Below, piece after piece: positions 14,112 through 62,868 of a DNA stretch of 64,000 nucleotides; the first letter of the stretch is position 1, and each line of letters opens with the position of its first letter. The position numbers and the translations under genes were made by a program. This DNA comes from Patescibacteria group bacterium (GTDB lineage Bacteria > Patescibacteriota > Patescibacteriia > UBA9934 > GWF2-40-263), in the NCBI GenBank assembly GCA_018814025.1, contig JAHJAM010000023.1, positions 1,896 through 65,895 on the forward strand. Reading direction: 5' to 3'. Under the pieces are notes generated by a model, which was given only the letters and a program-made list of their open reading frames with translations, had not been told where the DNA came from and ran no database searches.

Positions 14112-14140
14112 AATATATCACAATTTTACGATTTTGTCAA
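14112..14140 (-). promoter_or_regulatory. consensus sigma70-like promoter (TTGACA-N17-TATATT) for the lipoprotein genes
   Basis: Minus-strand TTGACA at 14135-14140 and TATATT at 14112-14117 with an exact 17-nt spacer; a leader of about 190 nt reaches the gene start near 13909. Confidence 0.5.
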
Positions 14141-16643: not shown

Positions 16644-16830
16644 CTCTTTCCTCCGTATACGGCTAAGCCGATTTGTTTTTAGGTTGTTAACGATCTATTT
16701 AAACTCGGCTAAGCCGAGAGATCTCCCCATATGGGATTGCCGATTAATCGGCCTACCCGCATACGAAAGACACGTAAATATACCATATTTTAGCCAAAAT
16801 GTCAACCCTGTCTGACAGGGCCCTTGAAAC
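16644..16830 (-). promoter_or_regulatory. promoter (TTGACA-N17-TATATT, minus strand, 16777-16805) plus a palindrome-rich 5' leader for the 799-aa gene
   Basis: Palindromes CCCTGTCTGACAGGG (16806-16820, abutting the -35), GCCGATTAATCGGC (16739-16752), CGGCTAAGCCG twice (16660-16670, 16706-16716) and CCGTATACGG (16653-16662). Confidence 0.45.
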
Positions 16831-16864
16831 AAAAAATTCCATCACCGGGTGATGGAATTTTTAC
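16831..16864. terminator. bidirectional intrinsic terminator (ends the Fe-S operon on the minus strand)
   Basis: AAAAAATTCCATCACC-GG-GTGATGGAATTTTT, a symmetric hairpin with A and T runs. Confidence 0.65.
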
Positions 16865-45906: not shown

Positions 45907-46087
45907 TTCATATTTCGTGCGCTGATCCGAGTGCCGGGAGACGAGCCCCAAACCCAGAAAAACGACCTTAATTATGTGCCGAGCTTAACAATCGAACCCC
46001 AATTTGTCAAGTTTTCACCCTCTTTTGACTTCAGTTGGTCCACCTTCTATACTTAAGAACATAATCATCACCATAACTAAAAATATT

Positions 46088-46501
46088 ATGTTTAGTGAAG
46101 GCGGTTCATATCCCGAAGAAGCAAAAATAAAATGGGAACAAAGAAGGGCTGAAGAACAACACCAAAAAGAACTTCAGCAAATAAAAGATAAGTTCGCAGC
46201 CGAAGATGTTCGTGGACAGTTTAAGCAATATGCTGACGAAGCAATGGCCAAGCTTTTTGAAATTCCTGCTATTGCTCAGCGCTTTGATCAAGACCCGGCT
46301 TTCCGTCAAGAAATTGAAGATCTTAAGGCGGCTCTTGTGAGTGCCAAGGATTTTGACCAGGCTAACAAAATCGTCGAATCTTTTTCACCAGAAGCGGGTG
46401 CCGCCATGAAAGATTTCTTGCCGGTTGTTGAGGGCACGGTTATTCATGAACCCATCGATTTGGAATATTCAAAAGATGCTTCGCCTTCACTTGAAAGTTA
46501 A
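46088..46501 (+). CDS. hypothetical protein
   Basis: ORF 46004-46501; start ambiguous (M at 46004 or 46088); charged, helical; followed by a terminator at 46514-46560. Confidence 0.35.
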   Translation: MFSEGGSYPEEAKIKWEQRRAEEQHQKELQQIKDKFAAEDVRGQFKQYADEAMAKLFEIPAIAQRFDQDPAFRQEIEDLKAALVSAKDFDQANKIVESFSPEAGAAMKDFLPVVEGTVIHEPIDLEYSKDASPSLES

Positions 46502-46560
46502 AAGCAACTTAATAAAAATCCCCCGCTTAGCCGTTTGCTGAGCGGGGGATTTGTGTTTTG

Positions 46561-46956
46561 CTACGAAAGTAGTCTTCTGGTTCGGAGTACCAAACCGACC
46601 TTCCATCGTACTTGATCTCGGCGTTCTTTCGGCCCCTCCAAAGAGGTCTGGCACAAGCCCAAGGCCAAAAGTTCGCGATTATCGAGAAACCCATATTCAT
46701 CAATCGGATCTTTCGGATCCGAGAAAATGCTTTTGAGCACAGCTTCTGGCAAGTAGTCCGGCAGCTCGATTGATTCCAAGGTATGAAAGAAGCTCACTTG
46801 CTGTCCTTCGTCCAGCTCTGACAGGTTGAGCATTTGTATAAAAATCGGATTGCGCATCTCCCAAGTCTCTTTGCATTCATGCAAAAAGCTTTGCGGATTG
46901 CGACGATACCAAGCCGCATCGTGCTGGGACAGGTTAAGGTGCATGTTTTCCTCCAT
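46561..46956 (-). CDS. hypothetical small protein (divergent partner A)
   Basis: Start placed at MEENMHLNL; about 130 aa; promoter in the left arm of the 46986-47030 palindrome. Confidence 0.4.
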   Translation of the reverse strand: MEENMHLNLSQHDAAWYRRNPQSFLHECKETWEMRNPIFIQMLNLSELDEGQQVSFFHTLESIELPDYLPEAVLKSIFSDPKDPIDEYGFLDNRELLALGLCQTSLEGPKERRDQVRWKVGLVLRTRRLLS

Positions 46957-46969
46957 TGAAGAACAGCGA

Positions 46970-47046
46970 AATCTATCATTTAATTGCGGTTTTGTCAAGC
47001 CTCTGACCGTCTGGGGCTTGACAAAACCGCCAAAATCAACTACTAT
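46970..47046. promoter_or_regulatory. divergent consensus promoters embedded in a perfect 45-bp palindrome
   Basis: GCGGTTTTGTCAAGCC-N13-GGCTTGACAAAACCGC (46986-47030); plus strand TTGACA(47018)-N17-TACTAT(47041); minus strand TTGACA(46993-46998)-N17-TAGATT(46970-46975). Confidence 0.55.
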
Positions 47047-47071
47047 CATCAGTTCAATCGTGGAGGAAGAA

Positions 47072-47500
47072 ATGGAAATGGACACCAACCAACCCATTAA
47101 CCTGTTTTCTCACCCCAGGTTCGATCAGAAATTCTTTGGCAAGCTGCACAGCATCTTACAGATCCACAATCCGCTTGAAGGTTGTTGGGCCCAGGCTCCA
47201 GTCGCGGCCGCTCGGATTACGCTCGAGCTGATCGCGGATGCCGAGTTGCCGCCTGAGTGGCTCAAGAATCATCTCACTATCTGGCTTATCGGCCACGGTT
47301 GTGACGTGATTCTGACCATTCAAAACATTGTGGATAAGCGCTGGGGCGAAGATAGGTATTTCCATCTTCAGGTCACAACCTGGCCGACGCACCCCATCTC
47401 TCTGGATCAGTTCCAGGACATCCACCTAGTATCATCCAGCGGCCAATGCTGGTCATCCCCCCTTGCAACTTTACGGATTCAGAAAGTCAGCCACGGCTAA
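47072..47500 (+). CDS. hypothetical small protein (divergent partner B)
   Basis: GGAGG six nt upstream of ATG 47072; about 142 aa; weak resemblance to partner A around an ELP..EWL segment. Confidence 0.45.
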   Translation: MEMDTNQPINLFSHPRFDQKFFGKLHSILQIHNPLEGCWAQAPVAAARITLELIADAELPPEWLKNHLTIWLIGHGCDVILTIQNIVDKRWGEDRYFHLQVTTWPTHPISLDQFQDIHLVSSSGQCWSSPLATLRIQKVSHG

Positions 47501-47593
47501 CCGCCTTCCAACCACAGTCTCCGGACTGTGGTTTTTTCTATTATCCTGCCCCAAAATGTGATACATTGTAAGCAATTCTTAATCGAAAATTTT

Positions 47594-59390: not shown

Positions 59391-59474
59391 GTTTTCCTCC
59401 TGGGAAGAAGCTGAAAATATATAAGTTGCCGGCAATTTTGTCAATCATCAGAAATCAGGTAAGATGCCACCACT

Positions 59475-62760: not shown

Positions 62761-62836
62761 GGGCCTGTAGCTCAGTTGGTAGAGCGCTGCATTCGCATTG
62801 CAGAGGTCAGGAGTTCGACTCTCCTCAGGTCCACCA
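62761..62836 (+). tRNA. tRNA-Ala (anticodon CGC)
   Basis: G3-U70 pair; anticodon stem CTGCA/TGCAG with loop TTCGCAT; T-loop TTCGACT; CCA encoded. Confidence 0.8.
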
Positions 62837-62837
62837 G

Positions 62838-62868
62838 TAAAAACACCAGCTTAGCTGGTGTTTTTACT
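62838..62868 (+). terminator. intrinsic terminator after tRNA-Ala (contains a CCAGCTTAGCTGG core)
   Basis: AAAAACACCAGCTTAGCTGGTGTTTTT. Confidence 0.6.

Follow-up and report, generated by a model that had tools for sequence, protein, structure and literature searches.

The 64-kb stretch of Patescibacteria DNA analyzed here (the window) carries, between positions 46561 and 47500, two small divergent genes, A and B, separated by an intergenic region that is built around a perfect inverted repeat. The features of the locus, in order along the window, are as follows.

46516..46552, no strand assigned: hairpin terminator common to gene A and the convergent upstream gene (46004-46501), an inverted repeat found in the terminator scan
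46561..46944, minus strand: gene A, 127 aa plus stop; clade-specific, predicted all-helical, with a basic C-terminal helix
46949..46954, minus strand: ribosome-binding site (RBS) GGAGGA of gene A, 4 nt ahead of the ATG at 46944
46970..46978, minus strand: -10 hexamer TAGATT (46975-46970) with a preceding TGn, gene A promoter, from the promoter scan
46986..47001, minus strand: left arm, which on the minus strand reads GGCTTGACAAAACCGC; -35 hexamer (46998-46993) and flanks of the gene A promoter
46986-47030, 45 bp: the palindrome GCGGTTTTGTCAAGCC-N13-GGCTTGACAAAACCGC, with perfect 16-nt arms and its dyad center at 47008
47002..47014, no strand assigned: 13-nt central spacer, which separates the arms and evolves freely
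47015..47030, plus strand: right arm GGCTTGACAAAACCGC; -35 hexamer (47018-47023) and flanks of the gene B promoter
47041..47046, plus strand: -10 hexamer TACTAT of the gene B promoter, 17 nt past the -35 hexamer, from the promoter scan
47062..47067, plus strand: RBS GGAGGA of gene B, 4 nt ahead of the ATG at 47072
47072..47500, plus strand: gene B, 142 aa plus stop; a disordered N terminus with an NLFSHP motif, then a beta-sandwich
47510..47533, plus strand: intrinsic terminator behind gene B, from the terminator scan

The preliminary description had placed perfect 16-nt arms and a 13-nt spacer at 46986-47030, and the repeat was found exactly as claimed. It ranks first among all inverted repeats in the 64 kb of the window, the rest of which are, with few exceptions, terminator hairpins. 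The centers of its arms are separated by 29 bp, and its symmetry in the window reaches 22-nt arms with 91% complementarity and a 1-nt center; as single-stranded DNA, the 45-bp palindrome folds with -21.6 kcal/mol (z = -8.6 versus shuffles). The exact arm 16-mer occurs in the 64-kb window just at the two arm positions, and allowing up to 3 mismatches gave 5 matches, versus 0.83 expected. A search for further arm sites that could make up a regulon, with the 12-mer and the 16-mer, gave a number not above chance in the 64-kb window and none elsewhere in the related loci. An Rfam search at the palindrome site returned no RNA family. Two other perfect palindromes lie in the window, AAAAATTCCATCACC/GGTGATGGAATTTTT with 15-nt arms at 16832-16862, some 27 nt upstream of the -35 hexamer of a predicted promoter at 16805 (minus strand), and AGTAAAAACACCAGCT/AGCTGGTGTTTTTACT with 16-nt arms at 62836-62868; these may be terminators or operators.

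The promoter scan agreed with the proposed TTGACA hexamer in each arm and a -10-like hexamer at a distance of 17 nt. It returned TTGACA(47018)-17-TACTAT(47041-47046) on the plus strand and TTGACA(46998)-17-TAGATT(46975-46970), with a TGn extended -10, on the minus strand, each with a score of 10/12. The region between the divergent genes thus has, on each strand, an outward-facing -35/-10 combination at 17 nt, the arrangement of a back-to-back sigma-70-type pair. The mirroring extends to the translation signals: the ATG of A and the ATG of B are each exactly 64 nt from the dyad center, so that the start codons are 127 nt apart, and the distance from the -10 hexamer to the ATG is 25 nt on both sides. 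The two -10 hexamers are 65 bp apart. At the far end of gene B, the terminator hairpin occurs at the same place in the closest relative (described below), with compensating changes. In addition, 13 nt of the gene A initiation region (GGAGGAAAACATG, 46944-46956) are identical at the gene downstream of a predicted promoter at 59444 (minus strand), near 59400, and this shared stretch is probably a favored ribosome-binding context.

Both A and B are real genes under purifying selection. They are identical to two hypothetical proteins of a Patescibacteria MAG, KJ611_03370 and KJ611_03375, and a search of 5.8 billion proteins gave one close relative for each, with 62% identity for A and 55% for B. 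These relatives come from one sample, in which two contigs overlapping by 30 nt rebuild the same divergent pair (the closest relative). Between the window and the closest relative, synonymous sites are saturated, with identity at 124 of 295 four-fold sites (42%), and dN is 0.30 for A and 0.35 for B; the combination of such values with a saturated dS indicates that purifying selection acts on both genes. In the public annotation, gene B (KJ611_03375) spans 46943-47500 and encodes 185 aa, with a start upstream of the palindrome that overlaps the start of gene A. Since all homologs begin at the MxxN..NLFSHP motif, this annotated start probably lies 43 codons too early. The start of B may also be the second ATG, at 47078, instead of that at 47072.

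The two products had been called unannotatable, and no meaningful match has emerged since. Neither A nor B matched Pfam, NCBIfam, PADLOC, or PHROG at E values up to 1, and no DNA-binding domain was recognized in the sequence searches. Against PDB sequences, the B profile gave nothing significant, and the A profile gave a weak match only, to the IgG-binding repeat, a three-helix unit, of staphylococcal protein A. Tandem repeats inflate the score of this match, the per-domain E value being about 0.1, and the matching part is the A-family motif L.L..LD..Q.V.FF...E.I.LP (profile positions 24-58 of alignment A4); the likeness is most likely a chance helical resemblance. The AF2 model of A is all-alpha, a helical bundle with a pLDDT of 63 (low confidence), and that of B is a beta-sandwich with a core pLDDT of 70-79 (also low confidence) and a disordered N terminus; both models found generic fold matches only. 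A weak similarity between the two proteins, suggested earlier from the sequence, did not withstand alignment. BLASTP of A against B gave an E value of 0.26, outside the region that had been named, and hhalign of the two profiles gave a probability of 1.3%, for an alignment that is the very LP-motif pairing named before, while the predicted folds are all-alpha and beta-sandwich. We therefore rejected an origin of A and B as paralogs from an inverted duplication, in view of the lack of detectable homology and the difference in predicted folds.

The pair is embedded in a stable gene neighborhood. Gene order in the window is polynucleotide phosphorylase, an NYN-domain protein, ribosomal protein S15, an uncharacterized gene, A/B, a second uncharacterized gene, an MFS transporter, a DsbA-like thioredoxin, and a Xer-type recombinase, and this synteny (pnp-NYN-rpsO-x-A/B-x-MFS-DsbA-Xer) recurs wherever a contig of a related lineage reaches far enough. 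Six further full-length relatives of B came out of an exhaustive HMMER search that used the B alignment. On their contigs the gene order is preserved, and the place of A is taken by a small gene, which in L047, L042/L043, and L048 is clearly or distantly homologous to A; L047, L048, and L042 share the core synteny. In total, the divergent A/B pair and its back-to-back -35 boxes recur in six related lineages. A search for relatives of A or B on phages or plasmids found no match. The A/B pair is thus, by its genomic context, a core, syntenic, and vertically inherited unit and not a mobile one. A lower-GC relative, L046, has two B-family paralogs in tandem on one strand (1380-2372), directly behind an FHA-domain gene; this locus is without an A-like gene and without a palindrome.

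Comparison of the intergenic region among these lineages delimits what is retained. In the closest relative, both arms are identical to those of the window (32/32; 16/16 each), the central spacer has the same length and an identity of 7/13, and the remaining bases between the -35 and -10 hexamers are 16/20 identical. All 20 non-hexamer bases of the arms are thus unchanged, against an identity of ~42% at neutral sites. In an alignment of four lineages (the window, the closest relative, L047, and L042), the invariant positions are TTTTGTCAA on the left and CTTGACAAAACC on the right, the TA of each -10 hexamer, its final T on the plus strand and final TT on the minus strand, the TG ahead of the minus-strand -10 hexamer, a GTTC near the plus-strand start site, GGAGG, and ATG. 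The orthologous -10 hexamers read TGnTAGATT, TGnTAGCTT, and TGnTAATTT on the minus strand and TATCCT, TATTCT, and TATCTT, at the same position, on the plus strand. Such a set of invariant blocks is the pattern of two conserved promoters.

Extending the comparison to seven lineages, we found -35 hexamers placed back to back, with a TAnnnT 17 nt beyond each, in 7/7. The gap between the hexamers is 19, 19, 20, 19, 20, and 18 nt in six of them and 5 nt in L049, and the sequence and length of the central spacer vary in L047, L042, L048, L049, and L050. Over all seven lineages, the promoter elements are conserved above the neutral level (42% at four-fold sites). The two mirrored promoters proposed for the divergent pair are accordingly borne out, with the -35 and -10 hexamers, TGn, RBS, and spacing kept in up to seven lineages. 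Symmetry of the arms beyond the hexamers has a narrower distribution: it is 16/16 in the window and the closest relative, 15/16 in L047, in which CCA replaces CCG in both arms, 13/16 in L049, which has a different flank (arms CTTGACnGnAnCGGGA), weak in L048 and L042, and absent in L050. In the window, the closest relative, and L047, the two halves are alike over a longer distance, at 38/60 positions, including GTTC, the RBS, and equal distances.

We then compared the arms with the ordinary promoter context of this organism. Among the 15 other promoters predicted in the window, GG(G)TTGACAAA(A) is a frequent reading, which makes about 10 of the 16 arm bases a local norm. These bases fit the usual -35 context of the organism (GGnTTGACAAAA) and the remainder do not; five or six flank bases (C at -37, CCGC) fall outside the general promoter context. 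At the non-hexamer positions, the two arms share 10/10 bases, whereas the 105 other promoter pairs share a mean of 2.9 and a maximum of 9. The arm is alike with the predicted promoter at 14140 at 7/10 flank positions. Back-to-back promoter pairs are themselves enriched in the window (7 versus 0.9 in shuffles). A second such pair, TGTCAA-N14-TTGACT, lies ~1 kb upstream at 46003-46035, where rpsO on the minus strand and the 46004-46501 gene on the plus strand diverge; each of its hexamers is 17 nt from a -10-like box, and it is kept in the closest relative, including most of its center. The stretch at 45930-45990, upstream of the S15 (rpsO) coding sequence, is identical to that of the relative at 55/60 positions, above the surrounding coding regions; Rfam reported no family at 45930-45990, and the stretch could be an autoregulatory rpsO leader.

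Occurrence of the palindrome core in other genomes was assessed with scans for the exact 12-mer palindrome, with a variable gap, in genome, metagenome, and viral contigs. The scans found 10 genome loci and 29 metagenome loci, and none in the viral contigs. In two Uhrbacteria species, the 12-mer occurs with a 19-bp gap between the hexamers, 18- to 21-nt arms, -10 boxes at 17 nt, and RBSs, and there it separates the genes of an unrelated divergent pair, one for an L,D-transpeptidase-like lipoprotein and one for a membrane protein. With the same layout at a different gene pair, the mirrored arrangement is generic in the phylum and not tied to A/B. The other matches fall into about 11 unrelated families of long hairpins or repeats, on Actinobacteria-like, low-GC, and other contigs. 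Inverted 12-mers occur in the window at 0.22 per kb, and at this density, with the core fixed by the query, several matches are expected for any 12-mer in 596 Gb. We therefore dropped the idea of a widespread element conserved across phyla and treat the matches as coincidental, except for the Uhrbacteria loci, which share the promoter layout.

Two of the repeat families met in these scans deserve a description of their own. One is a multi-copy, nested palindromic element of ~120 nt (L005, L006, L008, L009, L011, L007, L012, L024, and L027). Five of its loci (L005, L006, L008, L009, and L011) come from one MAG labeled Melainabacteria, with a GC content of 0.67-0.69, and two (L007 and L012) from Amycolatopsis. 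Its outer stem (ccccgatc...gatcgggg) and middle stem vary in a compensating manner among the copies, and its loop, GTACTCTTTCCCGC, is nearly invariant; an Rfam search with the element gave no match. Given the GC content of 0.67-0.69, the Melainabacteria label looks doubtful, and the element common to this MAG and Amycolatopsis may be a REP/MITE-like repeat. In the other family, the arms (acttatctggattGGTTTTGTCAAGGG) are perfect over 27 nt and the flanks are conserved for more than 40 nt on each side; this family is found in metagenomes Ga01539xx with a GC content of 0.34-0.43 (L013, L015, L018, L019, L022, L028-L030, L032-L034, L037, L038, and L040). Its neighbors, judged by eye, differ from contig to contig and include type I restriction HsdM-like, helicase-like, AAA/TniB-like, and GTPase-like open reading frames; this element may be the boundary of a mobile element.

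Taken together, the data lead us to favor, at a probability of about 0.5, a reading in which the 45-bp palindrome lies at the heart of a compact promoter that works in both directions and co-expresses a conserved, vertically inherited, clade-specific A/B pair. Two sigma-70-type promoters would stand back to back, with their -35 hexamers 19 bp apart, and each would face outward and read through an ~18-nt leader into a small gene. Each arm would represent the upstream part of a promoter, roughly from -38 to -23, and would combine the -35 hexamer with a few more bases and with the flanks, rich in G and in A, that promoters of this organism typically have. The promoters would then be near-copies of one another, each kept by purifying selection, with template-switch correction of the quasi-palindrome possibly helping to keep them near-identical, and genes A and B would be co-expressed as the outcome. 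We infer from the sequence that both promoters fire and that A and B are expressed together, and the reason given here for the identity of the arms is likewise a reading of the sequence.

A plain promoter reading has to contend with the flanks of the arms, whose 10/10 identity exceeds that of all 105 other promoter pairs. With 20/20 of these bases unchanged while neutral sites are at ~42% identity, the non-consensus arm bases are under selection. The spacer sequence of sigma-70 promoters is usually without constraint, and the strict conservation of these arm bases is thus a hint of an extra ligand; the selection on them leaves room for one that is shared, at each arm. Accordingly, a possible though less probable alternative is that the arms are operator half-sites, at which a symmetric regulator, possibly A or B, would lie over both -35 regions and repress or activate the two promoters together. 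Such an operator would explain why the dyad symmetry exceeds the promoter consensus (10/10 versus a mean of 2.9) and why the non-consensus bases of the arms are perfectly conserved while the center drifts. In other lineages, the arms resemble one another and differ from those of the window, as in L049 (13/16) and L047 (CCA for CCG), which is as expected from a local regulator that co-evolves with its site, and the uniqueness of the motif in the window also fits a local rather than a global regulator.

Several observations weigh against an operator. A and B are without a recognizable DNA-binding domain, and their low-confidence models match generic folds only; a new fold for DNA binding is conceivable. 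The 29 bp between the arm centers is far for an ordinary helix-turn-helix dimer, and the change in the hexamer gap from 18-20 to 5 in L049 is hard to square with one dimer bridging the arms. Moreover, L042 and L050 keep the pair and both promoters with little or no arm symmetry, the same arm core is found at the unrelated Uhrbacteria gene pair, and the 64-kb window has no second site for the motif. A more specific version, which we regard as rather doubtful, is that the extended arms are the operator of an unrecognized DNA-binding protein, most plausibly the all-helical A, which would autoregulate its own divergent locus. If this were true, the specificity of A would have co-evolved with the arms, from AAAACCGC in the window clade to GnAnCGGGA in L049, and A/B would represent a new pairing of regulator and effector, conserved in the core genome within one Patescibacteria clade.

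It is improbable that the symmetry is a historical accident, left by an inverted duplication of promoter and leader or by template switching, with selection on the hexamers only. The likeness of the two halves over their full length in the window, the closest relative, and L047 (38/60) and the symmetric arms at the unrelated Uhrbacteria gene pair are consistent with such an origin, although A and B themselves are not duplicates of each other. Template switching during replication is a documented mutational process that can drive imperfect inverted repeats toward perfection (PMC7202029), and it could explain why the arms match within a genome and differ between lineages. It is a mutational process and not a functional element, and neutral homogenization would not lower the substitution rate between genomes. 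Neither gene conversion nor template switching can by itself account for the between-genome conservation of the arms, in which 20 non-hexamer bases are unchanged, against ~42% at neutral sites and 7/13 in the center.

Quite improbable, too, is a direct role of the palindrome as a DNA structure, in which negative supercoiling would extrude a cruciform or hairpin that hides both -35 boxes, so that the pair would respond to supercoiling. The stable hairpin predicted for the single strand and the extension of the window symmetry to 22-nt arms with a 1-nt center would suit this idea, and conserved arms around a free loop are the pattern expected of a selected stem. Cruciform extrusion in vivo requires short central spacers, and near-perfect central symmetry is not conserved: it is partial in the window and absent in the closest relative, L047, and L042, in which loops of 13-20 nt would result. 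Control by a cruciform is therefore unlikely; in addition, L042 and L050 are without extended arms. Finally, the preliminary description had likened the layout to toxin-antitoxin or sensor-effector pairs, a resemblance that is not supported. A toxin-antitoxin-like or defense-type two-gene module would account for two small, tightly linked, co-conserved, uncharacterized genes, and it is highly improbable for genes that are divergent and not in a single operon, match nothing in PADLOC, Pfam, NCBIfam, or PHROG, sit in core synteny between rpsO and the MFS/DsbA/Xer block in every lineage with enough contig, and have no plasmid or phage relatives.

To our knowledge, there is almost no experimental work on promoters and gene control in Patescibacteria. 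Under the bidirectional promoter reading, the locus would offer an unusually clean, evolutionarily validated promoter pair, complete with -35, extended -10, RBS, and short leader, which could serve as a test case or as a source of parts for heterologous expression, and mirrored back-to-back promoters recur in the phylum. The A and B families, being conserved, core-syntenic, and wholly uncharacterized, are candidates for clade-specific biology. Nothing at the locus points to a new mechanism.

In the classification of Beck and Warren, back-to-back divergent promoters are reportedly a classical class of bacterial divergent gene organization. The A/B region resembles this class in having complete sigma-70-type promoters on opposite strands, with abutting upstream ends and start sites about 90 bp apart. 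It differs in that the -35 regions are exact copies over 16 nt, which makes the region a perfect palindrome, and in that the layout, and in several lineages also the symmetry, is conserved across a clade. At the E. coli bioO/BirA and tetO/TetR systems, a single operator controls divergent promoters, and the half-sites of bioO are about 28-30 bp apart. As in bioO and tetO, dyad symmetry between the divergent A and B genes overlaps promoter elements on both sides, with a spacing similar to that of bioO, but the likeness to bioO is one of geometry only. The half-site TTGACAAAACC here points away from the dyad, unlike the TTGTAAACC of bioO, the genes on either side have nothing to do with biotin or tetracycline, and the arm spacing varies across lineages. 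Resemblances to BirA/bioO, CtsR, TnrA, and dif were set aside because half-site orientation, repeat type, or spacing did not agree.

Symmetry-based bidirectional promoters with a shared or overlapping -10 element have been described in E. coli and other prokaryotes, and RNA polymerase binds them in one orientation at a time (Warman et al., 10.1101/2020.01.31.928960; PMC12825309). They have in common with the A/B region divergent transcription from a pseudo-symmetric promoter region. The shared -10 type, whose start sites lie roughly 18 bp from each other, was rejected for A/B, since the -10 hexamers at 46970-46975 and 47041-47046 do not overlap. At A/B, with 65 bp between the -10 boxes and the symmetry in the -35 region, both promoters could be occupied together. 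In comparison with these systems, the locus is a tidy, conserved case of a known promoter layout rather than a new kind of genetic module.
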